In this document: positions 2,874 through 46,984 of the stretch, piece by piece | Numbering within the stretch: position 1 is the first letter of the stretch | How the letters are laid out: every line of letters starts with the position of its first letter | IMG/VR virus record: IMGVR_UViG_3300031760_003956 | Coordinates: 1 to 64,000 of that record | DNA length: 64,000 nucleotides | Strand: one strand, 5' to 3' | DNA from: a virus | Lineage: Duplodnaviria; Caudoviricetes | Program-made: the position numbers and the translations under genes | Notes under the pieces: model-generated | The model's database searches: none | What the model was told of the DNA's origin: nothing | What the model saw: only the letters and a program-made list of their open reading frames with translations

Positions 2874-3116
2874 TTATCGCTTTATAAAGTCCACATCATC
2901 ATAAGATTTATTGATTTTTGAATTGTAAAAATCGCCCTTATGATTATTGTAAAAAATCCGCAAAAAAGCGTTTTTATCATCCACAATATGAAAAGTCGCT
3001 TTTTTACTTTTGATTAAAAACTCCGTTGCATTACCGTTAAAATCATCACCGACAAAACCGTCAATAAATAACTGTTCGGCTGCTCCGTATGGCGAATATC
3101 CTTTGTATTCGTACAT
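2874..3116 (-). CDS. hypothetical protein
   Basis: ATG 3116 after GGAGG, in frame with the track ORF. Confidence 0.7.
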   Translation of the reverse strand: MYEYKGYSPYGAAEQLFIDGFVGDDFNGNATEFLIKSKKATFHIVDDKNAFLRIFYNNHKGDFYNSKINKSYDDVDFIKR

Positions 3117-3129
3117 AGTTTGTCCTCCC

Positions 3130-3303
3130 TTAATCGTTATAAAATGCTTTTTTAGCATTAGTTTTATAAGCGTAAACTATCTCATTTAAAAAATTTGTCC
3201 TTGAATCCTTTAAACGCTGTTTGACGCTATTTTCCGCTTGCCTTTTGCTCATACCGAAATACCACATCATAGCTGTGATATACTCTGATTTACTATAACC
3301 CAT
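3130..3303 (-). CDS. small hypothetical protein (57 aa)
   Basis: AAGGAGG RBS; MGYSKSEYITAMMWYFG...AFYND*. Confidence 0.6.
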   Translation of the reverse strand: MGYSKSEYITAMMWYFGMSKRQAENSVKQRLKDSRTNFLNEIVYAYKTNAKKAFYND

Positions 3304-3404
3304 AATTTGTCCTCCTTTAAATTAGTAATAAGATTAATTACTTAGCCATTAAAGCGGAAAAATATCCGCTTTAACGGCTCAATAATCAATCCTCCTTGAA
3401 ATAG

Positions 3405-3731
3405 TTATTTTAATATTCTGAATCCCTTATGATTTGGATTTTCTTGTCTTATAAAACCGTGTGCTTTTTCGGTTATAAGTCCGTCTATTTCCTCATAACT
3501 TGCCAATATAGCACAATTTTCTTCATACCATTGATACAAATAATCAAAATTTTCTTCTGAATAGTCCATAACAATATAGTCTACAGAGCCAAGCAAAACA
3601 CAATCTAACTCGATATACTTTTCAAGTGTATCAATATTAGTTTTACTTGAAATCTCCGCATAATAACCGGATAATTCGCCGTTGCTTCTGATTAATTCTC
3701 TACGGTTTTTTGTTATAGAATTAGTAAACAT
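3405..3731 (-). CDS. hypothetical protein
   Basis: ORF track; AAGGAGG RBS. Confidence 0.75.
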   Translation of the reverse strand: MFTNSITKNRRELIRSNGELSGYYAEISSKTNIDTLEKYIELDCVLLGSVDYIVMDYSEENFDYLYQWYEENCAILASYEEIDGLITEKAHGFIRQENPNHKGFRILK

Positions 3732-3751
3732 TTTATCCTCCTTTAATTCCT

Positions 3752-3883
3752 TTATAATTCGCCCAGAATAGCCCTTATGACGTTTTTATGACGTTTGCCA
3801 ATATACCGCAATCCTACCCATAAAACGCAGCCCAGAGCTACCCAGAGAGCCAAAAATGTGACTACTTTTAAAATAATTTCCAT
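3752..3883 (-). CDS. 43-aa single-pass membrane peptide
   Basis: GGAGG RBS; MEIILKVVTFLALWVALGCVLWVGLRYIGKRHKNVIRAILGEL*, a hydrophobic helix plus a basic tail. Confidence 0.6.
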   Translation of the reverse strand: MEIILKVVTFLALWVALGCVLWVGLRYIGKRHKNVIRAILGEL

Positions 3884-3921
3884 AGTAACCTCCCTCATAA
3901 GGGAGGAATTTTCCGCCTCCC

Positions 3922-5229
3922 TTATGTTAATAATTTCGCCCGTGTAATGGTCGTTTGCTTTTGTCCGTTAAATTCGCCGTGCTCTTTTACTGTGAAATTC
4001 ATACCCTTGCAATTTTCAAAATCCTCGTTGTTATAAGAGGTTGATGTTTTCCAAATAAACACATATTTTCCGCTGACTAATCGCCATACCGTTACCCATT
4101 GTCCATAGCCGTATGAGCTCTCCCAACTTGAGATAATTCGCGCATCGTCTATATGGTCAACGGTCGCTCGGTCGCCAATTTTGCCGAAGTGTTCAAAAGT
4201 CAAATTTTCCGCTTGCCTCTTTTCAATTTCGATTTTCTTGTCAATCGCTTTAAAGTAACAGTTTGGTAAGCACGCTATAAAACCGATGTTGTTTTCTTTT
4301 ACGTAGCCAGCGCGAAGCATAACTTGAATATTGTTTATAAAGTCCGTTGTCGCCTCTTGCGCTTGATAATAGTTGATTATCGCGTCAATTTCCGAGTCGG
4401 CAAAGTTGAAATAATCTTCAAATTTTCCGTCGAATATATCCGCTTTTAACCAACGATTAAGGCGGTCGAGCCGCTGCTGTTCTGACTCCTCGTCACACAG
4501 CATTTTAACAATGTTCTTTGTCGGTAAATCCGCTTTTGAATTGTAATATCCAATTTTCCGCGTAACGCCGAGCGCGTAACACAAAACTTCTCTAATATCA
4601 AAATAGATACGTTTTCCGCCAAATTCAGAATAGCTAAAGCCATATTCTTGCGCCTCGTCCATATACACGAGCATTTCGGAAAGTGTCTCAACTAATTTTG
4701 CTATTTTTTCCGCCGAGATTCCCCAGCCGTAATATTTCATACAATTAGAGCCGACCTGCTTATAATCGCCGTTGTTTTTGTCTTGGATTATAAACAGATT
4801 TTTCCGCCAGCGATTTGTTTTACAATAGTCGCAATAACATTCGGTCGTCCTGTACTTTTTAGGAACTTCCGCGCCGTCGTGCAAAGTATGAATTATATTG
4901 CCGTTGTCCGTATATTCAACCATAGCCAGAATATCAAAATTTCCGTCGAGCTTCGCGGTCACGTCCTCAACCTCATAAACGTAAACTTTATAAGGGTAAA
5001 GCGATTCGCCGCTCGCCTCGGCTTCTTTGATTTTTTCCGTCTCGTTAGCGTCGAGAATAATCGTGCCCCAGCCGCTCCCGTCCCAGCGTTGTTTGTAATA
5101 AACAAGTTTGAACTCTTCGCGGAGTAAGCTATATTCAAAGGGCAAATTGAACTTTTTACACTTGCGCGCAAAACTTTCCATTCGCTTTTCAAATTCGTTT
5201 TTATAGCTCTCGTAAATTTTTACTTCCAT
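3922..5229 (-). CDS. phage protein with CxxC...GxxC zinc motif and C-terminal OB-fold-like domain
   Basis: CDYCKTNRWRK...QVGSNC and C-terminal GKIGDR...TVKEHGEFNGQKQTTITR; GGAGG RBS. Confidence 0.75.
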   Translation of the reverse strand: MEVKIYESYKNEFEKRMESFARKCKKFNLPFEYSLLREEFKLVYYKQRWDGSGWGTIILDANETEKIKEAEASGESLYPYKVYVYEVEDVTAKLDGNFDILAMVEYTDNGNIIHTLHDGAEVPKKYRTTECYCDYCKTNRWRKNLFIIQDKNNGDYKQVGSNCMKYYGWGISAEKIAKLVETLSEMLVYMDEAQEYGFSYSEFGGKRIYFDIREVLCYALGVTRKIGYYNSKADLPTKNIVKMLCDEESEQQRLDRLNRWLKADIFDGKFEDYFNFADSEIDAIINYYQAQEATTDFINNIQVMLRAGYVKENNIGFIACLPNCYFKAIDKKIEIEKRQAENLTFEHFGKIGDRATVDHIDDARIISSWESSYGYGQWVTVWRLVSGKYVFIWKTSTSYNNEDFENCKGMNFTVKEHGEFNGQKQTTITRAKLLT

Positions 5230-11203: not shown

Positions 11204-14200
11204 GTGATTATCTCGCTTGATACACAAGTAGATATTTATGCTGTTGATACAGGTGACTTTTACTCAAACCGAGAATTACGACTACATAATCAACATCATA
11301 AACTGAAAGCTGAACGGAAGTTTTTGAAAAACAAAGTTAAGCTGCTTAAAAAAGAATTTGCTAAATACAAGATTGAGGACTTATCTGCATTTGATAAGTG
11401 TGATAATGTATCGGAACTTTATGAATTATGCGGAATAATAAATCCAAATATTGCAGAATACAAGGAAATCTTTGTTGATTTGATTGAGGATTACTTAAAA
11501 ACAATCTCTTTGATTGCTCATAAACGAGAATTAATTAAGTCTACAAAAGAGGAATTATTGAGTTTACTTCATAATAAAGTTGAAACTAACATTTTACATA
11601 ACGGTACTCACCATAAACGAATTTTACGACCTGAGAGCGTTAAGAGAATATCAGATGACAAGGAAACTAATAATGATAAGAATATTATTTCTGTGTTTAT
11701 GTCAACTCTTATACGGACTATCGGAATCGAAGAAAATGAGTTGACTGATAATTTTATGGTAGTGCAGATATACTTCTTTGATATTCTCAAAGACTTGATT
11801 TATTTTGGATTTGAGTTTAATGGTGAGAAATATGTTTACTATACTTCCTCAGCCGGACAGATACGAACTAAGAAATGTGTTTTTATCAAGGAATGTATAT
11901 TGAAAGCACACGAGAAGACACTTATGTGTGGTCTTACTACAGATATTATCAATCAAAAGGGTGGTAATATCCCGAATAAACATTTATCTTATACCGCACT
12001 TACGAATAGTGCTACAGATATTTGGAAGGAATTTGACGTTGATAAAACAATCGTAATAGACGACTTTGAAACCAATGTACTTGCTACATATGATTTTGTT
12101 AATGATGAAACATATGAAGTCGAACGTAAAACTGATTTAATACCAATAACTCATACGGACGGTGCTGGTATGATGTTACCAAATGCTTTCGGTGTTAAAC
12201 AGAAAAATATGATGGTGCGTTTGCCGTGGGTCAAGGGTTTGATTACTCCTTTTGATTTCAAGAAGTTTATTGAAGTAAATAATGCTTCTCCTGTGATTGT
12301 TGATATTTACGGTGTTGAACACGATATTATAAAAGAAGATATACAGGTTATCTTCACAAAAAGTCAATTCAAGATGGGAAAGTATTATTTGAATTGGAAA
12401 GAGTACCGAGATAACTTCAAAAAATATAAATGTCAAGCTGGGTATACCAATCCCGAAGAAGATTGTATTAAAGACGCTTCCATTAATTATCAAATGCTAC
12501 AGACTTTAATTGACGCTACTGATGACGAGATAACTGAGATAGCAAAATCGTCTTTAAAAGACCTTAATAGTATGACAAATACTGTGGGTGGTATGCAGAA
12601 CGCTTTGGGTATTACGCCATATAATCACGATATGACTTATTTTCAGAGGTCGGTTGAAATGTATCCCGAACTTTTGAATGATGAGTATGTTAAGAATCTA
12701 TTAAGAGAAATCAAAACAAGTATGGTGAAACGCTTTAAAGCCGGAAAATTAAAAGTTAAGGGTAAATATACTTTTATTTTACCTGACTTCTACGCAGCTT
12801 GCGAATATTGGTTTTTGAATAATAGTAATCCGAACGGTTTACTTGATGACGGAGAAGTATTCTGTTGGTTATTTAGAAAAGCTGATAAGGTTGATTGTTT
12901 ACGGTCGCCACATCTATTTTTTGAACACGCTATTAGAAAGAACATAGCGGTCACTAAAGAAGATAATTTAGAGCGACAAGAAAAAATTAGAGAGTGGTTT
13001 GATACTGACGCTGTTTATACAAGTTGTAAAGATTGTATAAGTAAGATACTCCAATTCGATGACCTTTAATGTCGAACTTTGCGGAAACGTAGAGATATAA
13101 AACTCGGTGAACTCGTAATTACGAGGTGTACGGCTTACGTTGAGGAATTATAGGAAATGATAATTAGAAGTCGTGCTAACAGGGGTAGAATCCTGTGCTA
13201 AGTTTAAAAAGTGCAACGACTATCGAAAGGGTATTTGTAGACCGTATGGGTTTACAAAGAGTAACCAAGTAGAGTACATACAAGGCGAAATTCCTTGTGT
13301 GGAAGTGCCGAGAGCCTAAGTCAGAAATGATATGGCTATGATATAGTCTAACTTGTCATATGACAAGTTGGTTGATGGAGATAAATCGCTCGTATTAACA
13401 GATAAAACGATAATTAATATAGCAGAACGAGTGCAGAAAAAATATGATATAGTACCTCTTTATTACAATATGCGTAAAGCAGAGCCTATCTTTATAACTA
13501 CGGAAAGTATATTTGAGGGCTTAATCGCAGCTTTCACAGGTGGAAATATTGGAATCTACAGTAACAATATTTCAAAGATATGGAACTCAAATACGATGTT
13601 GCACGGTACTAATGAAGAAAGACAGGACGCAATTAATATAATTAAGTTGCTTTGTATGGAGAATAATTTTGTAATTGATTACGCTAAAACTCTATATAAG
13701 CCTGAACGTCCGAAAAAGGTTCACGATAAAATATGTGAACTGACAAATGTACCACTTCCTCATTTCTTTAAATACGCAAAAGATAAAGAGGATTGGCAAG
13801 TAGATGATAAAACCGATTCTCTTGTAAATAAATTTGACGATTTGTTTATCAATCCTCGTTTTGAGTTTCGGAAGTTGAAGTTAGAAAAACCTGATTATAG
13901 ATACCTTATGAGCAATATAGGGCAAACTTGTAATGTATCTTTCTTACCAAACGGTAAAGTTGATAAAAACAATACTGACCCGATGATAGTGAAATTTAAT
14001 GAACTTAATAAGAAGTTTTATTTTAAACTCAACAAAAATATGATAAACGTCTATAGGGTTATGACTACGAAAGCGAATGTTCGTCAAGATGTTATTTATC
14101 GCCGTATAGTTAAACAGGTAAAATCTGAATTATCTAAGTTTGGATATTCAAATAAAGAAATCGCAGATATTTTGGTTTTGTATTTGTATAAACTCCGAGA

Positions 14201-14429
14201 TAGTAGACACAAGGTTTTGCTGTGGGTGTGCTATGGAGATATACTTTATAAGAACTTAACAAAGTATTTTAAACAGAAAAGAAAGTCGGTACAATGCGTT
14301 GATTGTGGTAATTGGTTTTATGCTGGTATTAAATCTACTACCATAAAAAGATGTGAAAAATGTGCAAAAAATATCAAAAAATCAGCCAATTTACACGACC
14401 ACACTATAATCCAAAAAAACAAAGAATAA
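11204..14429 (+). CDS. YonO-like single-subunit (two-barrel) phage RNA polymerase; spliced join(11204..13060,13371..14429), about 971 aa
   Basis: Motifs SAGQIRTKK, HTDGAGM, RLPWVKG and CLRSPHL. Splicing restores the catalytic QFDVDGDK. Lies upstream of HU and terminase as in SPbeta. Confidence 0.88.
13061..13370 (+). ncRNA. group I intron in the RNA polymerase gene (310 nt, ORF-less)
   Basis: P1 ttcgaT/Gtcgaa with U.G pair; R-like gcaacgactatc and S-like gatatagtct (P7 gacta/tagtc); terminal G13370; removal restores frame and DxDGD. Confidence 0.92.
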
Positions 14430-15098: not shown

Positions 15099-15175
15099 TG
15101 AGGTGTCGCCAAGAGGTTAAGGCACAGGACTTTGACTCCTGCATTTCGTGGGTTCAAATCCCACCATCTCAGCCA
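15099..15175 (+). tRNA. tRNA-Gln (TTG)
   Basis: Acceptor TGAGGTG/CATCTCA, anticodon loop CTTTGAC, GGTTCAAATCC T-arm, encoded CCA. Confidence 0.95.
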
Positions 15176-32454: not shown

Positions 32455-35400
32455 ATGGCAGATGAAGATTTCAGACTACAACTATCAGCGGAAATAGGTA
32501 GTGACTCTATAAGTAGGGTTAAATCTCAACTTGACGAAATACAAAAGTCAGCTAAACCGATAACCTTAACAGGTGATATAGGGGCGTTGACTAAAGAAAT
32601 TGGAGAGTTGAGGTCACAGCTTAAATCTGTTAGTGCTGTTAAAATAGACGCTAATATTAAAACGGCTACAAACTCTTATAAAGAATTAGTTAATGTTGCT
32701 AAACAAATTGGTAATAAACAAATCAAGATTGCTAAACTTGATACACGGACAAATACTAATGAAATTAAAGCGTTACAGGCTGAGATAGATACTTTAACGG
32801 CTAAGGGTAAGGCTTTAATGGGTTCTTTCAATGGTAAGTTGTCGGCTGAACAGTTTAAGCAATTAGAGAATACAATAAAGGAAATTCAAACTACGACTCA
32901 GCAGACTATAGATGTTATCAATGCTAAGATGAAAGATAAGTCTGCGGTTGAGTTTCAAAAACAGGCTTTTGAAGATTTAAAAGCTAAAATAAAAGAAGAA
33001 GAACGGGCTGTCAGCGAATATAATAAAGTTCTTGAACAAATGAAGCGTTTGCAGTCTACTACTGAAAATGCTGGATATAGGGATTCAGTAGGTACTGCGA
33101 CTATTGAGGGATACAAAACAAAACTTGAAGAACTTAAAGCTAAAGAGGTAGAGGTTCGTGAGAAATTTGCTGATTTAATCCCACAGGAAAGTATAACTAA
33201 GGCTGAAACTGGTTTTGCCAATATAACTGCAAATATCGACAATATTGTTAGTAAAGCAGAACAGGCAAAAGAAAAACTCGTAGAGGCTATTCAGGGTACT
33301 CTTGCTAATGGTAATGCTTCAAATTATGATGTGGCAATATCAAAAGTTAGTCTTGATATGAGCAAACTTTCTGCGGTTAGTGATGAAACACGGGAGAAAG
33401 TTCAGTTACTTAGAGATACTTTAGTTGAAATGCGTACTGCGTCTGAAAGTGGTGATGTTGAAACTCTTATTGCTAAAGAAAAAGAATTTTCAGATACTTT
33501 AAAGCAAGTACAAAATGAGTTAAAAATCACGGCAGACAGAGAAGAAGAATTAGCACAAGCGGAGAAATTACTTAATGATAGAGCGATTCTATCTAATCAA
33601 ATGGGCGTGTGGTTGAAAGAAAATACTGCCGCTACAAAACAATTTGGTAATCAAATTAAAATACTTCAAACCGAGGTTAAGTCTTGTGATAATGTAAGGC
33701 TCGGTCAAATAAGACAAGAGTTTAGAATGATTACACAAGAAGCTAAAATGGCTGGTAAAACAGGTTTGGCTTTTACTGATAGACTCGGTTATCAAATAAA
33801 GAAGTTGTCAACGTATTTTAGTGGTCTTTATATTATTATGAGTACCTATAGAACTCTTAAAACAGGTGTTGAAACTGTTATTGAGTTGGATACGGCACTC
33901 GTTGATTTGAAGAAGACTACTGACGGTACTACTGAGCAACTTAATGAATTTTACGAGAGTGCGTCTGAGATTGGTAAGCAGTTGGGAGTTACGGCGAAAG
34001 ATGTAATTCAAGCAAGTGCTGACTGGTCACGTCTTGGTTGGCTTCGGCTCGACCCTATATATAGAAATATATATAAGTAAATTCAGCTTTTATCGGGAAA
34101 TCTCCTGAGAAGGACAATTCCGAGGGCAAGATAGAATGTTTAGTATATTCTAAACCCGTAACGAGTAAGTTTTACATACAGTAATGTATGTTTGCACGCT
34201 GAACACCTAAATACGAAAGTACAAGGTGATGATGTACTCTGCTCTGCAACTATAATCAAAATATAATATGAAATTGCAGAGGTAGGCAGAAATGACCTAC
34301 CCCTTTCTTTTTGGAAAGAGTAACAAAAGGACTCAATTAAAGACGCTATTGAAATGGCTAAAACGTCATCTATTTTTGAAGCTATCTCACCGGATTTGGA
34401 TATGAATGAATCGACCGATGGGTTGGTTTCGGCTATGAAGGCAAAACGAAAGTTTATGCCCTGTTGTATAGTAATATGCAACTTGTATACATTTAACTAC
34501 AGGTAATCTCTAAAGCCTTGCACCACAATAACGGAGAAATCACGTTATGATGGCACGAAAGTAGAAACAACGTAAGGATGATATAAGGTCAAAAGCCTAA
34601 GTATTGTGATAATGAGTGTTCTGTAGCCAAGTACCCTAACGTATTCCGTAGACCATACGGTATTAGTCGAGGGTAAAGGTTCAACGACTATTCTCAGTAG
34701 AGTTATGGACTTGTGAATAAGGGTGGAAATCCCGAATATCCATAACAATAGAAGTACGGCACAATCGCAAAGGTGTGAGTGAAAACCTCTTAAATGGAAA
34801 AGGTGTACCCCTATTAAATAGGGTGAAGAAATAGTCTATTCTTATATGAAAATATAAGTACAAAAGATTTAAAATTGAAGCAGATGACGCTTTAGATGGA
34901 ATTGCGAGTAAGATTAATGCTATAGGTAATTCACAAGCAGTCAGTAACGGAAATATCGTTGACTTCCTTACTCGTTCATCTTCTGCTATGGCAGAAGCTA
35001 ACAATACTTTAGATGAAACTATTGCGTTAGGAACGGCAGCAACAGAAATTACGAGGGACGCAGCTTCCGTAGGTAATGCTATGAAGACAAAACATTGTCT
35101 TTATATACAGAAATGTATATATAGAACACATTTAATTGCAGGTAATACCTAAAGCCTTGCACCACAATAGCGAGGAAACTACGCTATGATGGTTTGAAAA
35201 CGTAAGGATATTACAATGGTTGTTCTGCAACGAAGCACCTAAGTTAGTAATAATATGGTGAACGCTCAACGACCACTCCCTTGTCGGGTTGTAGGTTTAC
35301 GAATAAGGGTAAAATCCCGAATAACTACAGCAACAGAGGTACGGCACAAGCTAATGGTGTGGGTGAAATCCCCTTAAATGGAAAAGGTGTGGTTGCTATT

Positions 35401-38400
35401 CTGTTTAATACAGAATGTGATTAAGAAATGGTCTACTCTTGCGTGAAAGCGTAAGTTATCAATTGTGATAAGGTGTATGTTGCGAGTACACTTAATATTT
35501 GGAATAAGTATGAGAATTAGAGGCTATGATGAAAGCACCAATGAATTTATTGGTGGCGTAGAAGTTCTCGATGGTAAAATAGCAAATCTTACGAAGACTG
35601 CTAAAAACGGATTTGGTGGCGTTTCTTTATTTGCTGACGAAGCAAAAACAACATTTAAAAGTACAACACAAATTTTAAGAGATATATCTGAGGTTTGGGA
35701 TGACCTTACCGACAAAAATCAGGCAAAATTACTCGAAGCTCTTGCCGGTTATCATACGTTAGCCGGATTGTGTAGTAATACACAAAATAGTACATATTTA
35801 ATTGCGTTGGTTGCCTAAAGCCTTATACTACAATAATCGAGAAATCAGATTATGAGAGTTTAACAACATAAGGATATTACAATGGCTAATTCGCAGCGAA
35901 GTACCCTAACATTATTCTTAAAACAAAAGAACAGTTAAGCTGAGGGTACACGTTCAACGACCATTCCCGATAGGGTTGTAATAATAGAATAAAGGTGGGA
36001 ATCCTGAATAGTTACAACAACAGAAGTACGGCTCAAATATATGGAGTGAGTGAAAACCTCTTAAATGGAAAAGGTATGCCCCTATTTTAAATAGGGTGAA
36101 GAAATGGTCTAAACTTATACGAGAGTATAAGAATGGTTATATATAAAAAATATGAGATATACTTATACGAATGATGATATTGATTTTTTAAGAAAATATT
36201 ATCCAAACGGGGATTGGGAGAAAATTGAACAAAGATTCCCGTTTTTATCAAAAACAGCAATATATAGAAAATGTCAAAAATTAAATATTGCTTCAAATAA
36301 TACGCATAGAAAAGATTTTGACAATACTAAAAATAGACGTAAGTGGACGGAAAAGGAAACTAAAATATTAATGCAAAATTATAGTTATATTCCTTTTGAC
36401 GATTTAATGAAATTATTACCAAATCGCACTAAAGATATGATTAATAATAAAGCAAAAAGATGTAATTTATTATCTTATCAAAAAATTACATCAAAATGGA
36501 AAGACTGGGAAGTTGAATATATACAAACTAATTGGTTTTTAATTCCCGATGTGATTATTGCGAAAAACATAGGAAGAACACAAAGGGCGGTCAAATGGAA
36601 ACGAGAGCAAATGGGATTGTATAGACAAAATTTTGAAAGTTTTTCTTATCCAACGATTTCAAAATATTTACGAGGTCAAAATCAACAATGGAAAAAAGAG
36701 TCTATGGAGAATTGTAATTATAAGTGTGTATTAACCGACAGTAAAAGTTTTGAGATACATCATTTATATGGTGTGAGCAATATTATAAATGATATTTTTG
36801 ATTTATACCCTAAATACAAAGATAAATCTTTTAAAGACTACTCTGAAAAAGATTTATCTTTTTTATTAACTGAATTTTTAAGAATACAGAGTTTATATCC
36901 GCTTGGTGTATGTGTGGATAAAAAATTACACGTTTTGTTTCACAGTATGTACGGTCAATACTTTAATACACCTGAACAATGGTATAGATTTTGTGAAGAT
37001 TATAAGAAAGGAGTGTATGAAGAATATATATAACCATTAACAGAAGTTGTGACTCTGTTTAATAAAATTGAAACGTCAAGGTCAAGTTGTTGCAGCTATG
37101 CTCAACAACTTCCAAACAGTAGAAGATTCTCTTAATACAATGCAGAATAGTGCTGGTAACGCTATGCAAGAAATGTCAATTATTCAAGACAGTATTGAGT
37201 ATAAAATGAACGCATTTTCTCAAACTGCAACAGGAATATGGCAAAACCTTTTCAAGCGTGGCGATATTGGTGCTGTTATTGATTTATTTACAAATTTCTT
37301 ATCAATAATAGATAAGATTACAGACCACTTTGGTCTACTCGGCACAGCCGTAGGTATAACCGCTGGTATATTATCAGCAAAATTTGGCGTGGGTGAACTA
37401 ATTAAACAGTTCTGTTTACTTATGACACTAAGGAACGAATACGCTCACGAAACCTTTAACTAATAGTAATATAAACGAGATTGTGTTTGCTCGTATAACG
37501 GTTTATCGTTACACAATCAAGAGGGGTTTAGAAAAATAGGATAAACTGATATAAGTTAAAATTCTTATATCAATAGACTAAGACGTTTTATATGTTAAGC
37601 TACATAATACATATAAAACTATTAGCAGCCATTACCTTACGAGAGGTAGGTTCAGAGGACATAAACCTACACGGTGAGAATCGTGAATGAATGTTGCAAA
37701 CTGTACCCGACAGTAGTTATGAGTTGGGGTAAAAATTTAACCATTGGCTAAATGGTGTGTCAAAAATAGTGGGATACTTCTTCCCTGTTACCTGAGCAAA
37801 AGAAGTTAAAATAGAAATTTTATGTATCATAATGCACAAATAACACTTGAAAAACGTGCGAAAAGTGTAGTGAAGTAGGTTGAAAAAAGTGCGAAAAGTG
37901 TGTTTTGACGTATTTTGTTCACTTTGTATTTGTGCAATATGACGAATAAATAGCAACCAAAAAAGGTTGCATATAGAAAACGCAACCAAAAACGGTTGCG
38001 TTTGTTATTATACTGAAAGGGTATAATTTGATTTTTACGATTCGGATTATACCTTAACGGGATATTTCCCATTTCGGCAATTTTTTCGGATTTGGGGAAT
38101 AGATTGCCGATTTAAAAAGAAAGGATTGGTAAAATGATATTTTCGGTTGATAGGTTTATTGAATTATCAAAATCAAAAATAAAAAAGAAATTTAAAAAAG
38201 TATATCTTTATGATGAATATAATAATGCAACTGGTAGAAACAAAGAAAGGCGTTATTATTATAATAAAGAAATTATGTTATTTTTAAAAGAATGGGAGAT
38301 TGAATTAACATATAAAACATTGATTCATAAGGGTGTTTTTACGGAGAAAGAATTGTCTTTTGAACAATTTATAAAACTATTTTATATAAAAATATTTGAG

Positions 38401-41400
38401 AATCGGTATTTATGTAGATTTATAGATATAAAACCGATGATAGATTTTATTAATAGAGTTCGGCAAAATAATGATTAATCATTCTCCATAGGTTATTGCA
38501 GAGGTATAATTTTTGCCTTAATTGTTGTTTCTTTGTTTCATTAAATTCATTCTTGACTTCATTAGAAAGAATATTATTACGCTCTTTCAAACAAAGGACA
38601 ACAAAAGGTGCGTAGAATATTGCGTCTGATATATTTATAAATGTATTATTATTCATTTTATTTATTATATCTTGGCGATAAGAAAATTCTTGCATAATAA
38701 ATATACCGTCTATTTCTACGGATTCTTTGATTAGCTTAAATTCTTCTTCTGTTAATTTTCTATCTACAAAATCACTCATATTCTTCCCTACCTTAAAACT
38801 TATAACCACAATTCCGGCAAACAAATTGACTTCTTGCGGTTTAATTAGTAACTAATCTACTTTATATTCATATAAACTTGCTTTCCAAGTACCATTTTCA
38901 CGGCGTTGACAACTAACACTTTTTATTTGAGGTTTACCGTTAATAGTCATATTGAAATCAAGATAAACGGTATCTTCATCTATTATATTGTAATCTCCTG
39001 TATAGACCACACTACTTACTTCTCGATATATGCTCATAACTCTACTACAGTATGACATAGCTGCTCTTTCTGCTTTTTTGAGATAGTATGTACTCATTTG
39101 AGGTTTTGTATATTCTTGTTCGTAGTCGGTGTCGGAATAAGAATTTGTATTAGTCGGGTTATCGGTTGTATTGCTTTTCTTACAAGTAGTAAGAGATATA
39201 ACTATTCCAATTACTACGATTATTATTATTACTATTATTGAAACAAAAAATACGATTGAATTTTTCTCGGATTTATCTTTATTTTGTAGCATAATATAGC
39301 CTCCTTTGGTATTTAAACCAATTATATATTATCTTTATACACAATTCAAGTAATTTTGATAAATTCAGGTTACGTCTTTATATTCAGTTTGATATTCAAA
39401 ACCGTTGAAGACGAATCGAAATTTGCTGGAATTAGAATAAAGAATAACTTATTAAGTGGTATAAAAGCAATAGCGAGTGAAGCCCCGAAGATTGATTTGG
39501 GTAAGAATTTTTCTGCTAATTTAGATAAGCAAACAGAGTATTTTACTTCATTTAGAAATGCAGTAAATGAAGGTATGGCGGTTGATGAGGCTAAAACACA
39601 GTATTTATCAAGTGCTATGCAAGCAACTCGTGATTATGTAAATGCGACAAACTTAGCAGAACAAAGCGAAGAAGGACTAAGAACCGCCGTTACTCAAAGT
39701 CAAGTGGCTTTAGTGGCACAAGGTAATAGTCTTAGTAATACAAGGTCGTTGATTGCCGAGTATAACTCTGGTTTAAACACTACAGGTAATGTATGTAAAG
39801 AAACGGGATTAAATCAAACACAATTTGCACAAGCGGTAGCACAATCACGAACTGGTTTAGGTAATTATTTAAACAATTTAGACGGTGCGAAGGCTTCTAT
39901 GGGTGGTTATATCGCTCAACTTGTAGGTGCTAAAATTGCTACGTTTGCTTTAAACGCTGTAACAACATTACTTAATGCTACTATTAGTATGGGTATTGGG
40001 CTTATTGCGTCAATGCTTGTAAGTGGAGTAGTTAGTTGGATTGATGATATAATTCATCATACTGAGAAACTTATTGAAGCCGGTGAAGAAGCTGAAAATA
40101 AAGTTAAGGAAATTAGCGAAACTTTTGAAAAACAAAAGTCTGTTATAAGTGAATCAACAACGCAATTTGCTGAATTGGCTCAGGGTGTTGATATGGTTAC
40201 TGGTAAAAACAAATCATTGTCAACGTCTGAATATGAGGCGTTTTTATCAATTAGTAAAGACTTGGCAGAACAATTTACCGACCTTCCTGTTATTTACGAT
40301 GAAAATGGCAATGCTATTGTTCAACTTAACGGTAATGTCAATGATGTTACAAATTCTTTAAAGGAACTATTAGAGGTTGAAAGAGAAATAGCCAATCAAA
40401 AAATTGCAGATGAATTACCAAAGATTTTTGATAAAACTAAGGCACAAAATGAAGTTTTAGAAGACGAATTATACGATATACAATCTAATTTATGGTATAA
40501 CAAGTTAGATAAAGCTGGTGAAAAGCGACTTTCGATAGATGTAAATGGTTTAGATTTAGATGAAGTAACGAAGATACGAGAAAAATACGAGGCTTTATTT
40601 AAAAAATATAATATCCCAGCTTTATTTAATAAAGGACAACAGGTTTGGAAAGATGATAAACTTGTATTTGATACTTTGTATTTTGATTTAAACGGAACTG
40701 TAAATGTTACTGATAAATTGAAAAAAGAATTAGAAAAAGGTACTTACGAAATTCAAAAAGAATTTGAAAGTAAATTAAGTGGAAATACTTTTCAAACACT
40801 TGTTAATAATGTTAATAAAAAATCTGCTGATAAACAAAACGAAATAAAGCAGAATTGGAGCAATTTAACTTCTAATATAAATAAATGGCTACCTACCCAA
40901 ACCGACTATTCTGCTCTTTCGGAAGAAAGACAAAACCTTATCCAACGGTCTATTAACTCGTTGGATTATACTGCATTAAATTTTGATAAATGGGAAGACG
41001 CTGAAAAATATATTAAAGACCATTTATTAAAGGTATTAGGTAAAGATGAAAACGGTAAATTTAATTTTGATATTGAAAAATATACAGATTTATCGGAAGC
41101 CTTTGACTCATTTAAAAAAAATAAAATATCTCTAAAAAAATATCAAGAGTATTATAATACTGTTAAGACAAATCTTGAAGGTATTAAGGGCATTACAAAG
41201 GAAACCAAAAATGCTATATTAAATGATTTTAATACTATTGGTTCATCGGGAGAAACTTTAGATAATGCTTATGAAAGAATTTTTAAACTTTCTAAAGGCG
41301 TAATATCGGTAAAAGACGCTGAAAAAGAGTTAAAAAATTGGAAGTACGATGATATTTCAGCTTTATTTAAAATTGACGCTAAAACTATAAAATCTTGGGA

Positions 41401-44400
41401 TGATTTAAAAAACAAGATTAAAGAGTTTAAAGAAACCGATACAAGCAATTTTGATGAAAATGCTTTTATTGATGATGTTAAAAGGAGAGCAGACGCTTAT
41501 TCTGATTTTCTTAAACAGTCAGCACAACAAGGCGGTATTAATTATAAAACTGAAACTGATGAAAAGGGTAATGTAAAATCTCTTGGTGTAGACGCTCTTG
41601 CTTCTTATTATAGTCAAATTAAAGGTTATGATGAGGACAAACTTATTAAACGTACTGCACAAGGTATTAAACTTAATACACAAGAACTTACAAGATTAAA
41701 TAATGAGGTTGCTAAACAAGAAAAGAGCAAAGTTGATGAAAGGATTGAAAAGTTACAAAAGAAACTTGGAAATCTAAATGAAAAGATTAATTCTTGTACG
41801 GACGCAGAAGAAAGATTAAACCTTGAAAATGAACGTAGTGGTATTCTTGATGATATTGAAAACACCGAACTACTTGCAGCCAATTATGAAGCACTAACTT
41901 CTAAGTATCAGGCTTGGCAAGACGCTTTGAGTAATGGAGAAGAAGGAGATTCTTATGACGCTATAAGAGATAAACTCAAAGATATTAAAGAACTATACGA
42001 CAAGGGTTTGGTTGGTACAAATGAGTTTAGAACTTATGTTGATTTACTGACGTTTAAGGATTTATCAACGGCTAATGTTGATGATATTGTTAAGGCTTAT
42101 GAGAATCTTGACAATAATATTAAGAATACAAGTTATAGCGTAAAAGACTTCCTCAAAGAAGATGAACAGGGTGTAAATAACTTCTTGTCTGCTATGAAAG
42201 AATTAGGTTACTATACACAAGGTAAAGATGGTGAATGGACTCTTAAAATTGCAGATAAAGAAAGTCTTGCAAAACAGCTTGGTATTAGTACGGAATTTCT
42301 TGAAAACATTGTACAGAAGTTAGATGACTACGATTTCACCGTAGATATTGATATTGGTGGAATGTCAGATAATGACTTACAAAATGCTTTTGATGATGTT
42401 CGTAAGAAATTAAAGAAAGCAAAACTCACCGATATGACATTTTCGTTCGATGAGAATACTACTGAATCACAGGTTGACGACCAACTTAAAGAGATTCGTA
42501 GGATTATTCATAAGAAGTGGACTACCGTAAATGGTGAAGGTCAAGAGGTTATTAAGTTTGACATTGATGATGAAAATGCTAAAGCTGCTCAAATTATTCT
42601 TGCTAATCTTTTAAAGAAAAAGCAAGAATTTCAAGATAGCGGAGCGTTGGCGTTAAAGGTTGATGTTGACAAAGACTTAAAAGACCCGAAATCTGACGCT
42701 GGTAAGGCTATTAATAACATTCAATCCTTTAATAAAGGTATGAATAAGTATCAAGTTGATATTCAAACAGGTACGGATACGAAAAAATCGACTAAGAAAA
42801 TTACTAAGGCTGTTGATGGTCTTAATAGTATTAAAGACAAAAAAGTTCGTGCTGAACTTGGACTTGATGATAAGAAATTTAAGAAGGCTGTTAAGAATAT
42901 TAAGGCTAAAGTTAAAGCTGGTGCTGATTTAGACCAAAAAGATATTGACATTGTTAAATCCAAAATCAAAGGTATTGACGCTAAAGCACTCGTACATCTT
43001 GGAGTTGATAACAAGGACGTAGCTGAGGAAAAGAAACGTCAAGAAGGCGAAGTTATCAATAAAAAAGTTCAATTTAGCGTTGAAAAAAGTGAAGTTCTTA
43101 AATTTGAGAAAGAAGACCACGATGTAAAGGCTATTCTTAAATATGCTCCACAGATTGATGAAGACGCATTTACCCGATTAGTTAATCAGGCTAAAACGAG
43201 ATTACAAAATCAGTTAAAAAATGTTAATCCTACGCCAAAGTCAAAGAAAAAGAAGAAAGCTAAAGTCAATGGTACTGCATTTGCAAGGGGTAATTGGGGT
43301 GCTAAAGACTCCGGTAGGGCTTTAGGTGGAGAACTTAAACCTGAAATTCACGTTTTTGCTAATAGTGGACGTTGGGAACTTATTGGCGAACGCTCTCCTG
43401 AGTTCTTTAATTATCGTAAAGGCGATATTATTTTCAACGGAGAACAGACCGAACAGTTACTTAAATATGGTAAGATTAATTACGGTAGTAAACGTGGTAA
43501 TTCATTCTTAGGTGGTACTGCGTTTGCTGGTTCTTCTGCTCGTGGTGGTATTAATCTTAATAGTCAAGGATTAATACCTAAATCTAAATCTACGAAGAAA
43601 TCTTCATCGAGTTCTAAATCATCTTCTTCATCTTCTAAAAGTAAGAGTAGTTCTGATAGTAAGAGTGATAAGGACACACCACTTGATAAGTTTAAAGATT
43701 GGTTTAGTAAACTGTTTGATTGGATTGAGGTTAAACTTGAACGACAAACTGATAAAATTAGTGACTATATTACTAAGGCTGAACGTGCAACAGAGCGTGG
43801 TAGTTATGACGCTTCTGTTAAGAATTATCGTAAAGCTATAAACACAACAAGTGGGCTTGTTGAAACCGAGGGTAAAGCAAGTAGGCGGTATAAGAAACAA
43901 GCTAATAAAACATTGGACGTTGCTGTTAGCAAAGGCGTTATTAGCAAAAAGAGAGCAAATTCGATAAAGAAACTTGTTAAGTCGGGTAAAATTGATATTA
44001 GTAAGTATAGCGAAAGTGTTAGAGAAGTTATAGGTGATTATCAACAATGGTATGACAAAGCCAAAGAAGCTAAAAAATCTATCGGTGAACTTCATAATAA
44101 TATTCGCACTTATATCAAAGACCTCAAAGATGTTCGTGACGCTCAACGTCAAGCAAAACTCGATAAACAGAGTACATTCACGGGTATTGGTACAAGTGGT
44201 TTTGCTTATACTTCTGCGTTTAAGAATAGTCAACTTAATTATCAAAACTCACAGCTTAATGCTCAAAATTCTGCTTATAAAACTGAAACTGATAAAGTTG
44301 TAAGTGATTCTAAGAAAATTGGTAGTAGTGCTACTTCTGCTCTTGGTAAGTTAAAGCCGAAGAAGAATCAGAAGAAATATAAGCAAGCTATTAAAAATGC

Positions 44401-46984
44401 TAAAAATGCAATTAAAGCTAAAAAGAAAGTTAAAGACGCTGACTTAAAAACTATTAAAAAGCATAGTGTCAAGACATATGAGAAATTATATGCTTATAAT
44501 CTTTCTTTGGATAATGTTGAAACGGCTAAACTTGAACAAGCGGCTAATTATGCTGAAACGAGTAATCAAAAATTTGCTAATCAAGAAGCTAAATATGAGA
44601 ACGACAGGCAAAAGAGCGAAGACAATATTAGTCTATTCCGTCAAAGAGCCGATAATGCTACTTCTGCAAGTGGTAAGAATACTCAGTTAGATAAAGTTGT
44701 TGCTCAGTACAATAAACAACAAACAGATAGACAAGCTGAGATTAATGATTTTGCGAATCAAGCAACGGCTTTTGGTAAAACTATTTCTAAACAATCTACT
44801 AAGGGTAGCGGTGATTATAGTCAATATATTACTCAGGCAAAGAATAACGTAACTGCTGGTACTACAATTAGTGCTTCTGTTCTCGCTAAACTTGCTGAGG
44901 GTTATAGTAAAGGTAAGATTACCGCTGGATTCTATCAGGCTTGTGTTGATTATAATAACGCACTTCAATACAAGAAACAAGCGGAAGACCAACAAGAGAT
45001 TGAAAACGAAACAATTATAGCCGAAAAACGTGCTATTGGTGAAGAGAAGATAAGCAATATTCAGAAAGATTATCAAAATAAACTTTATAATAATAGAGTA
45101 AATGGTTTGACCTCTGAACAGTTAGGTGCTATGCGTGATATTAAGACCGCAAAAGGATTATCGCTTGACGCTAATGACTATCAACAGCAGATTCAGCTAA
45201 GTCAACAACAGAGAAATATTTTGATAGCAGAACAACAAGATTTAATAAATCAAATGAATCAAAATATTGCTGATGGTTTGTGGACTTATGATTCTCAGGA
45301 ATACATAGACGCTTCAAAAGCACTTGATGAAATCGGTGTTTCGATTGCCGGTTGTACAAAGAATGAAATTGAATGGAATAATGCGATTATAAACTTACCA
45401 TTTGAGAAATATGAGAAAGCACTTCAAATCATCGACAAAGTTAAAGGTGCTTGGAGTGCATACGCAAGTATGATGAAGACGATTGGTAAGGATTTAGATA
45501 AGAGTGTTGAAACTGCTTATCTCCAACAGATAGCACAAGAAACCGAACATTATCAAACCACAGTAAAGCAAACTGCGGAGGCTTGGGCTAATTATCAAAA
45601 GGCGTTAGCTGATTCTGAGGGTGTTTATGGTGGTAAGACTGCTGAGGAATGGTTTGGTGAGTATAACGATTTTGCGGCGGCTCAATATTCTTCTTATGAG
45701 AATATTAAGAAAATTAAAGATGAACTTCGTGATGAGTTCTATCTTAAACCTTTTGAAAAAGCTATTGAAAAAGCCGAGAAACTTAATGGTTTGTTGGAGG
45801 GTATCGCTGAATTTATTGACGAGAGTATGTACTATGATAAAGACGGTAAGATAACCGAATATGGTATTGCACAGGTTGGTCTTTTGACTGCTGGTTACGA
45901 AAAAGCAAGAGAGCAAGTTGGCAATTATCAAGCAGAACTTGATGAAGTCAACAGACTGTATGCAGAGGGTTATTATACTGCCGATGAGTATGCTGATAAG
46001 GTTAATGAAGTACAAACTAATATGCTTAACTCAGCTAAAGATATGAAGTCTTCTATGAATAGCATAGTTAATATGTATAAAGATATGGCTAAAGCTGAGT
46101 TAGATAGTTTGTTTAAGTTAATCGAAACTCGCCGTGAGGCTATTTCAGCGAAAAAATCTTACTATGACTTAGACAAAACGCTCCGTGATAAAAACTCAGA
46201 AATTCAAAATCTTGAAGCACAGATAGCAGCACTTGAAACTATGGACGATTTAGAGTCTAAGGCTCAACGTGCAAGATTACAGGCTGACTTAAAAGAGAAA
46301 CAGGATGACCTTAACGAAACTGTAAACGACCACTTAATTGAGATTAGTCAGAACGCTCTTGATGACTTGAAAGACAGTTTACAAGACGCTTTTGATGATA
46401 AGTGGGAGCATATATTTACTGATTTAAGTCAAGTAACACAGCTTATGAGTGCTGCTAACGCACTTACTAAGGGTTCGACTTTAACTATTAATAATGCTCT
46501 TAATAAGTTACTTGGTTATTATGGTATTGACCCGAACAAAGCACAATTAAGTGATGTTGTATCTACGGCTTCTGCCGGATACGCAAGTGGTACAAGGTCT
46601 GTATCTCAAAGTGGGTTAGCTTGGACTCAGGAAGGACGTAAACCTGAGTTTATTGTTAGAAAATCTGATGGTGCTATTCTAACTCCTTTAAGCAGAGGTG
46701 ACGGTGTAATTCCTAACGACCTAACTGATAACCTGTTTGCTTGGGGTAAGATTACACCCGAAGAATTTATCGGTAAGACGGGTGCTGATTATAACACACC
46801 TGAAACCAATGTCAACAATAATGTTTACAATAATTACGATAGTTTGATTAGAGTAGACGGTAATGTTGACAGTACAGTAATTACAGATTTAAAGGCGTTT
46901 GGCAAACAATTTTACGAGGACTCTTATCAATACACACACAGACGTATTGTAAGTGATTTGAAGAAAATTGGTGTTAAACGATAA
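32455..46984 (+). CDS. tail tape measure protein; spliced join(32455..34039,34331..34442,34867..35088,35503..35749,37071..37394,39392..46984) = 10083 nt, 3360 aa
   Basis: Junctions restore TP901-type TMP motifs: WSRLG|YSIKDA, VSAMKA|FKIEAD, VGNAMKT|ISMRIRG, LEALAG|KRQGQVV and FGVG|IFKTV. Long coiled coil; followed by Dit. Confidence 0.85.
34040..34330 (+). ncRNA. group I intron TMP-1 (291 nt)
   Basis: P1 ggtT/Gacc; P4 tcggga/ttccga; P7 gagta/tactc; terminal G34330. Confidence 0.87.
34443..34866 (+). ncRNA. group I intron TMP-2 (424 nt)
   Basis: R ggttcaacgactatt and S gaagaaatagtct; P1 ggC/Gcc; terminal G34866. Confidence 0.85.
35089..35502 (+). ncRNA. group I intron TMP-3 (414 nt)
   Basis: R ctcaacgacca and S agaaatggtct; P1 aagaC/Gtctt; terminal G35502; strong sequence similarity to TMP-2 and TMP-4. 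Confidence 0.85.
35750..37070 (+). mobile_element. group I intron TMP-4 (1321 nt) carrying a homing endonuclease
   Basis: P1 ccggT/Gccgg; R gttcaacgacca and S gaagaaatggtct; ORF inserted after P7; terminal G37070. Confidence 0.9.
36152..37033 (+). CDS. intron-encoded HNH-type homing endonuclease with N-terminal Myb/SANT-like repeats
   Basis: Three W/YTxxExxxL repeats; C-terminal YKCVLT...EIHHLY...GVCV...HVLFHSMYG. Confidence 0.75.
   Translation: MRYTYTNDDIDFLRKYYPNGDWEKIEQRFPFLSKTAIYRKCQKLNIASNNTHRKDFDNTKNRRKWTEKETKILMQNYSYIPFDDLMKLLPNRTKDMINNKAKRCNLLSYQKITSKWKDWEVEYIQTNWFLIPDVIIAKNIGRTQRAVKWKREQMGLYRQNFESFSYPTISKYLRGQNQQWKKESMENCNYKCVLTDSKSFEIHHLYGVSNIINDIFDLYPKYKDKSFKDYSEKDLSFLLTEFLRIQSLYPLGVCVDKKLHVLFHSMYGQYFNTPEQWYRFCEDYKKGVYEEYI
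38134..38478 (+). CDS. intron passenger, hypothetical basic protein
   Basis: ORF track; AAGGA RBS; very AT-rich. Confidence 0.6.
   Translation: MIFSVDRFIELSKSKIKKKFKKVYLYDEYNNATGRNKERRYYYNKEIMLFLKEWEIELTYKTLIHKGVFTEKELSFEQFIKLFYIKIFENRYLCRFIDIKPMIDFINRVRQNND
38450..38779 (-). CDS. intron passenger, hypothetical protein (antisense)
   Basis: ATG 38779 after AGGGA; converges on and overlaps the + strand ORF by 29 bp. Confidence 0.6.
   Translation of the reverse strand: MSDFVDRKLTEEEFKLIKESVEIDGIFIMQEFSYRQDIINKMNNNTFINISDAIFYAPFVVLCLKERNNILSNEVKNEFNETKKQQLRQKLYLCNNLWRMINHYFAELY
38852..39292 (-). CDS. intron passenger, membrane-anchored protein (antisense; superinfection-exclusion-like layout)
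   Basis: AAGGAGG RBS; N-terminal I/V-rich TM helix, T/N/S linker and soluble C-terminal domain. Confidence 0.75.
   Translation of the reverse strand: MLQNKDKSEKNSIVFFVSIIVIIIIVVIGIVISLTTCKKSNTTDNPTNTNSYSDTDYEQEYTKPQMSTYYLKKAERAAMSYCSRVMSIYREVSSVVYTGDYNIIDEDTVYLDFNMTINGKPQIKSVSCQRRENGTWKASLYEYKVD
39321..39349 (-). promoter_or_regulatory. sigma-A-type promoter for the antisense passenger genes
   Basis: Minus strand TTGAAT-17 nt-TATAAT, about 30 nt upstream of ATG 39292. Confidence 0.7.

Follow-up and report, generated by a model that had tools for sequence, protein, structure and literature searches.

Five putative group I introns from three families in a single phage tape-measure gene

Results

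Gene Organization

The DNA analyzed here is a stretch of 64,000 nucleotides (nt), positions 1 to 64,000 of IMG/VR virus record IMGVR_UViG_3300031760_003956, referred to below as the window. It is part of a 94-kb record, a metagenomic contig with an estimated completeness of 68%, and it probably belongs to an uncultured gut phage with Clostridia as host. The plus strand carries a 14.5-kb gene (32455-46984) for a tail tape-measure protein, and five group I introns of three unrelated families, all located inside 5.4 kb, very probably interrupt this single gene.

On the plus strand, a frame opens at 32455, is broken at about 34040, and resumes at 39392 as a frame of 2530 codons. Between 34040 and 39392, short open stretches were found whose translations resemble a tape-measure core. 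Joining of 32455-34039, 34331-34442, 34867-35088, 35503-35749, 37071-37394, and 39392-46984 yielded 10083 nt, corresponding to 3360 codons and a terminal stop with zero internal stops; no stop and no frameshift was present across the 10 kb of exon sequence. A preliminary description of this DNA had proposed that intron removal gives a single 3360-codon frame, and the joined exons bore this out. The boundary coordinates and the sizes of the internal exons given there (112, 222, 247, and 324 nt) proved right to the base, and the placement of five introns within about 900 coding nt agrees with a summed internal exon length of 905 nt. The introns measure 291, 424, 414, 1321, and 1997 nt, in order from intron 1 to intron 5.

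Two related contigs were particularly informative. L001, an IMG/VR contig recovered from a different sample, shares about 97% identity with the window; L019 is an ENA contig, and its exon 2-5 protein matches that of the window at 95-100% identity. Exon 1 (32455-34039, plus strand, as are all exons and introns; 1585 nt) lies in the open reading frame (ORF) 32455-34080 and ends with U34039, the first base of a codon. It is 98% identical to its counterpart in L001, which continues directly into exon 2. Exon 2 (34331-34442, 112 nt), fused to exon 1 in L001, is fused to exon 3 in L019. Exon 3 (34867-35088, 222 nt) is fused to exon 4 in L001, and exon 4 (35503-35749, 247 nt) is fused to exon 5 in L019. 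Exon 5 (37071-37394, 324 nt) gave tblastn matches to the tape-measure genes of phages Nate, PMBT24, and Sundance. Exon 6 (39392-46984, 7593 nt including the stop, 2530 codons) is an open frame with 56 long homologues, many of which contain PF10145 in the same protein.

Judged from its sequence, the predicted product is a phage tail tape-measure protein. This assignment draws on the PF10145 core, detected by Pfam domain search on the fused exons 3 and 4 of L001 (E 1.6e-13), on homology to annotated tape measures, and on its great length. The spliced protein was 32% identical to the Sundance tape measure over 402 amino acids (aa), and comparison with the PMBT24 tape measure gave 28% over 371 aa.

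Conventional gene calling does not recover this organization. No table-11 ORF with a start codon covers exon 2 or exon 3, and the ATG, GTG, and TTG ORFs listed around them either use a different frame or have their start 3' of the exon. The earlier statement that the ORF track breaks the gene up and misses two exons was therefore correct.

Splice Junctions

Exact empty sites were found for the first four introns. L001, which is without introns 1 and 3, reads CTTGGTT^ACTCAATT at junction 1 and ATGAAAACC^ATAAGT at junction 3 (the caret marks the junction). L019 is without introns 2 and 4 and reads ATGAAGGCG^TTTAAA at junction 2 and GCGAGT^AAACGT at junction 4. Owing to these empty sites in the two contigs, junctions 1-4 are each fixed to the base.

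The spliced protein was also compared with six uninterrupted proteins (P0004, P0007, P0013, P0018, P0021, and P0036). Five of the six aligned free of gaps at all five junctions, and P0004, the closest (53.6% identity over 416 aa), had a single additional residue adjoining junction 1. At junction 5, P0004, P0007, and P0018 read straight through as ...G^IFK or ...G^VFK. The tape measures of Sundance and PMBT24 were colinear with the spliced protein across junctions 1-4, and the tblastn matches of Sundance to exons 3 and 4 and to exon 5 abutted at 32714^32715. PF10145 is split exactly by intron 2, with profile positions 3-66 on exons 1 and 2 and positions 68-201 on exons 3 and 4. Alignment with intronless tape-measure homologues had been set beforehand as a refutation test of the spliced product; it was colinear at every junction, and the five-intron proposal was not refuted.

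Precise excision of all five inserts restores the host reading frame of 3360 open codons, and the last intron base is G in every case (G34330, G34866, G35502, G37070, and G39391).

Introns 1 to 4

A guide helix P1 was seen in all five introns, with a U-G pair at the cut in introns 1, 4, and 5. Intron 1 (34040-34330, 291 nt) has no ORF; it is missing from L001, and L019 has a 95% identical copy. The guide helix GGUUG/CGACC of intron 1 places the U-G pair at U34039. As read from the letters, the core pairing CGAGUA/UACUC is a compensatory variant of the usual GACUA/UAGUC, P3 is UUCAGC/GCUGAA, and a P8 hairpin and the terminal G34330 complete the structure. A weak match to RF00028 was obtained at 34034-34259 (17 bits), and over 42 nt of its core intron 1 shared 85.7% identity with the matching part of a 77-bit group I intron of the human gut phage contig L013. 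By these features, intron 1 is classified as a small group I intron of a family different from that of introns 2-4.

The cores of introns 2, 3, and 4 are 70-76% identical to one another and thus form one family. RF00028 matched intron 2 at 34458-34858 (36.3 bits, E 1.3e-6), intron 3 at 35079-35455 (47.8 bits, E 4.7e-10), and intron 4 at 35740-36131 (39.8 bits, E 1.1e-7). All three have a long insertion after P7, typical of IA introns, and share a layout of core, optional ORF, conserved 3' hairpin, and terminal G. Sequences with about 81% identity to part of intron 3 occur in Bacillus phages AR9 and PBS1, Vibrio phage JA-1, and S. epidermidis phages; the matching stretch of AR9 is presumably an intron.

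Intron 2 (34443-34866, 424 nt, IA-type, no ORF) is cut after C34442, with a C-G pair, and is missing from L019, where the site reads ATGAAGGCGTTTAAA. In L001, the place of just 8 nt of the window copy is taken by the gene for an HNH homing endonuclease of 451 aa (phrog_559, E 1e-58). Other boundaries for this intron, 34468-34858, were suggested by the Rfam alignment; they offer a U-G pair and are in frame, adding 11 residues (KRKFMPCCYKR). They were rejected on three grounds: L019 is uninterrupted at this position (ATGAAGGCGTTTAAA), none of the homologues contains the 11 additional residues, and the corresponding 3' site in L001 runs into a stop. The hairpin that Rfam assigned as P1 of intron 2 is P2.

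Intron 3 (35089-35502, 414 nt, IA-type, no ORF) is cut after C35088, again with a C-G pair, and is absent from L001. The copy in L019 is 97.6% identical and contains a 316-aa ORF. Intron 4 (35750-37070, 1321 nt, IA-type) carries an ORF after its core and is absent from L019; its guide helix, CCGGUUA/UAGCCGG, places a U-G pair at U35749.

The intron 4 ORF (36152-37033, plus strand, 293 aa) is, by its sequence matches, a probable homing endonuclease with Myb-like DNA-binding repeats. It matched phrog_323 (E 3.8e-13), a 'D5-like regulator' family in PHROGs, and Myb_DNA-binding in Pfam at E 4e-4, under the cut-off, while a PDB search gave weak Myb matches only. By eye, its C-terminal part shows an HNH-like pattern (Cys-x2-Cys ... 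His-His ... His-x3-His), and no family profile in Pfam, PHROGs, or PDB recognized an HNH motif or fold. The protein, which is unrelated to the endonuclease in intron 2 of L001, may still work as an HNH endonuclease.

The two C-G cut sites depart from the near-universal U-G pair at the group I cut, and C-G slows cleavage in other ribozymes. The intron 2 and intron 3 sites share GCTATGAAG(G/A)C^A, and no other placement agrees with both the empty-site alleles and the terminal G. A similar arrangement was found in L018 (MT835469.1), a 176-kb human gut phage whose tape measure is about 32% identical. At approximately 1135-2779, L018 carries a homologous intron at the intron 3 site, 70% identical, with the cut AAGAC^A and a terminal G. 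A second related intron is probably present at approximately 3000-5095, a few codons upstream of site 4, after GGC^A, and the tape measure of L018 is unbroken at site 5. Since this distant phage shows the same C cut at the same site, the C-G pair looks like a family trait rather than damage. RF00028 gave no match on the L018 locus, despite the presence of an intron 70% identical to intron 3; lack of an RF00028 match is consequently weak evidence.

Intron 5

Intron 5 (37395-39391, 1997 nt) consists of a group I-like core at about 37395-37800, a cargo region, and a short 3' tail ending in CAGUUUG. Homologues of its first approximately 380 nt occupy the same tape-measure site in eight other sequences (L001, L009, L010, L012, L014, L015, L017, and L019), including prophage-like regions of one Clostridia, one Eubacteriales, and one Ruminococcus metagenome-assembled genome.

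RNAalifold independently placed a helix CGUGGGU/GCUCACG with its U-G pair exactly at U37394. The structural model follows group I topology and comprises P1, P2, P2.1, a P3/P7 pseudoknot, P4-P6, P8, and three P9 hairpins. On alignment A5 (eight sequences), 96.4% of cells were paired under this model versus 34-42% in slid controls. Covariation was observed for 44 of the 98 model pairs, including two of the four pairs of the P3 pseudoknot helix, a result matched by none of 500 shuffles. Motifs resembling classic core elements were also recognized (GUUCAGAGGACAU, AGCAGCC, and AAUGNAUGUU).

The 3' boundary is marked in several ways. GAAUAC/GAAUAU beside the P1 guide strand forms a P10-type pairing with AUAUUC, which opens exon 6; this pairing is 5 base pairs (bp) long in the window, reaches 6 bp in both L009 and L017, and recurs in L001, L009, and L017. 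The CAGUUUG intron end is conserved in the window and in the same three contigs, in which tblastn homology to exon 6 begins at the base directly after the predicted splice site.

On the strength of covariation and of guide pairing with both exons, intron 5 is assigned as a group I-like intron of a third family. An early model with P7 GACAU/GUGUC and P3 GGUUUA/UAAACC was discarded, as these helices are broken in relatives; the replacements, GACAU/AUGUU and UAGG/CCUA, hold in all eight sequences. A group II intron was ruled out by the missing GUGYG start. Searches of the phage collection (whole region 'near', intron 5 core 'distant') returned nothing useful. A 24-nt match around GGTTCAGAGGACATAAACC was noted at 5750-5773 of L016, a genome of the marine Bacteroidota member Tenacibaculum sp. 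(96% over 25 aligned positions); it may represent an unrelated intron sharing the GGTTCAGAGGACATAAACC element, or chance.

The cargo region contains three ORFs. The first (38134-38478, plus strand, 114 aa) is preceded by AAGGA, which resembles a ribosome-binding site, and has a diverged homologue at the same place in L001; it had no Pfam and no PHROG match. The other two are antisense. The ORF at 38450-38824 (minus strand, 124 aa) showed no family match, and that at 38852-39292 (minus strand, 146 aa) encodes a membrane-anchored protein weakly resembling superinfection-exclusion proteins (phrog_8545 'Sie-like', E 1.7e-4). A promoter-like site for the latter lies in the 3' tail of the intron (39349-39321, minus strand, 10 of 12 matches), and L009 has an antisense lipoprotein gene at the matching position. 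GC and AT skew flip sign across 38500-39250. In L001, L010, and L019, the cargo at site 5 includes zinc-ribbon proteins.

The ribozyme core is separated from the cargo by a cluster of terminator-like hairpins, found on both strands at 37953-38003 (four found versus 0.6 expected). This cluster may keep antisense cargo transcripts out of the ribozyme. Upstream of it, at 37847-37901, two 22-nt direct repeats TTGAAAAA[C/A]GTGCGAAAAGTGT were observed, 33 nt apart.

Given this content, insert 5 could also be read as a gene cassette and no intron at all, with the tape measure translated as two separate proteins, about 852 and 2530 residues long. Insert 5 is without an Rfam match, holds three ORFs with promoter-like and terminator-like sites, and is followed in L001 by an exon 6 that begins with an ATG codon. 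In the window, L009, L017, and L019, however, the first codon of exon 6 is ATA, with no ribosome-binding site evident upstream. Moreover, the break falls exactly at the U-G of a conserved helix, the opposite strand of this helix additionally pairs with the first bases of exon 6, the covarying group I-like core begins at the break, and uninterrupted homologues continue through the same residues. Two separate proteins are accordingly regarded as highly improbable.

Intron Occupancy in Related Phages

Occupancy of the sites differed among the window, L001, and L019. Site 1 is occupied in the window and L019 and empty in L001. At site 2, the intron is present without an ORF in the window and with an endonuclease in L001, and is absent from L019. 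At site 3, it is present without an ORF in the window, absent from L001, and present with an ORF in L019, and at site 4 both the window and L001 have an ORF-bearing intron that L019 lacks. Site 5 is occupied in all three, with cargo that differs among all of them. An additional site, 2b, between codons 624 and 625 of the protein of the window, is occupied in L019 (2573-4628) and empty in the window and L001. The L019 intron at this site has a core of the intron 4 type (95.6% identical), a guide helix that is new, and an ORF of 415 aa, and leaves a 48-nt internal exon (4629-4676) between itself and intron 3.

The gene thus contains five introns in the window, three in L001, and four in L019, with at least six sites used among the three. 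In L012, an unbroken frame of 1151 codons extends up to site 5. As read from these sequences, the pattern is consistent with homing-driven gain, loss, and re-targeting that are still under way.

The first approximately 120 codons of exon 6 (39392-39757 compared with 17632-18012 of L001) are at most about 75% identical in DNA, versus 96% for the rest of the gene. This diverged start could be a recombination or co-conversion tract adjoining intron 5.

Elsewhere in the window, a probable sixth group I intron was noted at 13070-13346, with a weak RF00028 match at 13107-13366 (20.3 bits). It separates the open frames 11204-13069 and 13347-14429, which by eye look like two halves of one gene, similar to a gene of L013 with two group I introns (77 and 32 bits). 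A transfer RNA gene lies at 15099-15172 on the plus strand (RF00005, 58.9 bits).

Discussion

The anatomy of the tape-measure gene, its exact boundaries and empty sites, the colinearity with uninterrupted homologues, the covariation, and the guide pairings can be read directly in the DNA. We infer that each of the introns would actually be spliced, whether in cells or by itself. The gene would be transcribed as a single precursor RNA, in which the internal guide of each intron would pair with the end of the upstream exon, and two transesterifications would excise the intron, ending at its terminal G. Five independent ribozyme excisions would then give a 3360-codon messenger RNA (mRNA) and a protein of 3360 residues. 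The preliminary description had counted five splicing events per tail; the count should instead be given per mRNA. Tape-measure proteins follow a rule of about 1.5 Å of tail length per residue, and for 3360 residues the predicted tail would be about 500 nm long.

An in-frame stop lies 13-23 codons into every intron. These early stops would halt ribosomes on an unspliced copy, yielding a truncated product. The introns also appear to be mobile: intron 4 retains a probable homing endonuclease, and introns 2 and 3 would have lost the endonuclease ORFs that copies in relatives keep. Intron 5 seems to be fixed in this clade, with a swappable cassette that includes antisense genes apparently replacing an endonuclease.

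It had also been suggested that skipping of exon 3 (222 nt) or exon 5 (324 nt) would keep the frame, and this arithmetic is correct for both exons. Functional shorter tape measures and mixed tail lengths could in principle follow. For exon 3, skipping is also conceivable at the level of pairing, since the end of exon 2, GAAGGC, could pair with the intron 3 guide GUCUUU with one A-U replaced by G-U. In contrast, exon 4 ends in a sequence that is a poor match for the intron 5 guide. Both exon 3 and exon 5 code for conserved core sequence around PF10145, aligned in all homologues, and not for the long ruler part of the protein, while the loss of 74 or 108 of 3360 residues would change the predicted length by 2-3%. 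Furthermore, these exons are fused to their neighbors in L001 and L019, so the isoforms are no conserved feature. An exon-skipped protein would probably be inactive, and there is very little chance that skipping serves to set tail length.

Several observations weigh against five functional group I introns. All five fall short of the 50-bit gathering score of RF00028, and this profile gave no match on intron 5, even when the intron was searched alone, or on its homologues. Introns 2 and 3 have C-G at the cut (C34442 and C35088) and not U-G. P7 normally contains a G-C pair that binds guanosine in group I introns; in intron 5, P7 (GACAU/AUGUU) begins with an invariant G-U, and a covarying hairpin is unusually located between P3 and P4. 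Sense-strand terminator-like hairpins in intron 5 could stop transcription before exon 6. Finally, the contig is metagenomic and an estimated 68% complete, so that the phage may not be viable.

Such features would also be expected of a decaying gene, in which at least one insert (likeliest introns 2 or 3, or 5) stays unspliced, leaving a pseudogene in a defective phage. The C-G pairs at two cut sites, the non-canonical G-U in the guanosine pocket of intron 5, RF00028 scores that are all under the gathering score, and the incomplete contig speak for it. Decay is, however, difficult to reconcile with 10 kb of exons free of stops and frameshifts. The C-G feature is repeated at the same site in the independent and distant phage L018, the core of intron 5 is kept with compensatory changes in eight further sequences, all in open tape-measure genes, and between relatives the intron cores are conserved at least as well as the exons. 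A pseudogene is therefore considered very unlikely, and an intact tape-measure gene with five group I introns is preferred.

A more speculative extension is that the five ribozymes are non-equivalent. The weakened ones (two with C-G cuts, one with a G-U pocket) might make splicing a throttle or timer on tail production that depends on cofactors or conditions, and pairing of the intron 3 guide with the last bases of exon 2 could give a regulated in-frame isoform without exon 3. This proposal is regarded as very unlikely.

Comparable arrangements are known at smaller scale. ORF142 of phage Twort reportedly contains three group I introns in one gene and shows exon skipping. The present gene resembles it in that several related introns are packed in a short stretch with very short internal exons; unlike Twort ORF142, where three introns are present and splicing was reportedly shown experimentally, the five introns described here were read from sequence. 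The T4 nrdD (sunY) intron has its core at the 5' end, followed by a single sense-strand endonuclease gene before a distant 3' splice site. The same layout is seen in introns 4 and 5 and, among relatives, in those copies of introns 2 and 3 that have an ORF; in contrast to sunY, intron 5 holds three unrelated ORFs, two of them antisense.

The closest parallel in terms of host gene is provided by the tape-measure genes of Bacillus cereus-group prophages, which carry the group I introns TMP-IVS1, IVS2, and IVS3a/b (Tourasse and Kolstø 2008, PMC2504315). That survey described three sites, at most two introns per gene, and the classes IA1 and IA2. The present introns share with them the host gene, IA-class membership, in-frame insertion, early intron stops, guide helices that adapt relatives to new sites, endonuclease genes that are kept or lost, and patchy occupancy. 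They differ in that five occur in one gene and at least six sites are used among three close relatives, and in having two C-G cut sites and one family that gives no Rfam match and has non-endonuclease cargo.

In Bastillevirinae phages, up to three group I introns per gene were described in DNA polymerase, terminase, and nucleotide-metabolism genes, none of them in a tape-measure gene, and alternative splicing was detected in one gene by nanopore sequencing of complementary DNA (Weglewska et al. 2025, PMC11878797). Phage genes with several introns and, in some cases, endonuclease ORFs are common to that group and to the present case. No report of five group I introns in one phage gene was found in the literature, where the highest number found was three. 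The gene described here is an extreme and unusually informative instance of a known phenomenon.

One consequence concerns annotation. Because ORF callers fragment this gene and lose two of its exons, giant tape-measure genes in gut phage catalogues are probably often mis-annotated. The locus also supplies natural variants at ribozyme positions generally regarded as near-invariant, namely the recurrent C-G cut pairs and the family-invariant G-U guanosine pocket, which are testable at the bench. With three relatives (the window, L001, and L019) that show 95-100% identity in the exon 2-5 protein and in which endonuclease genes have been kept, swapped, or deleted, and with one ribozyme type re-targeted to different sites among close relatives, this group of phages constitutes a natural experiment on intron mobility.

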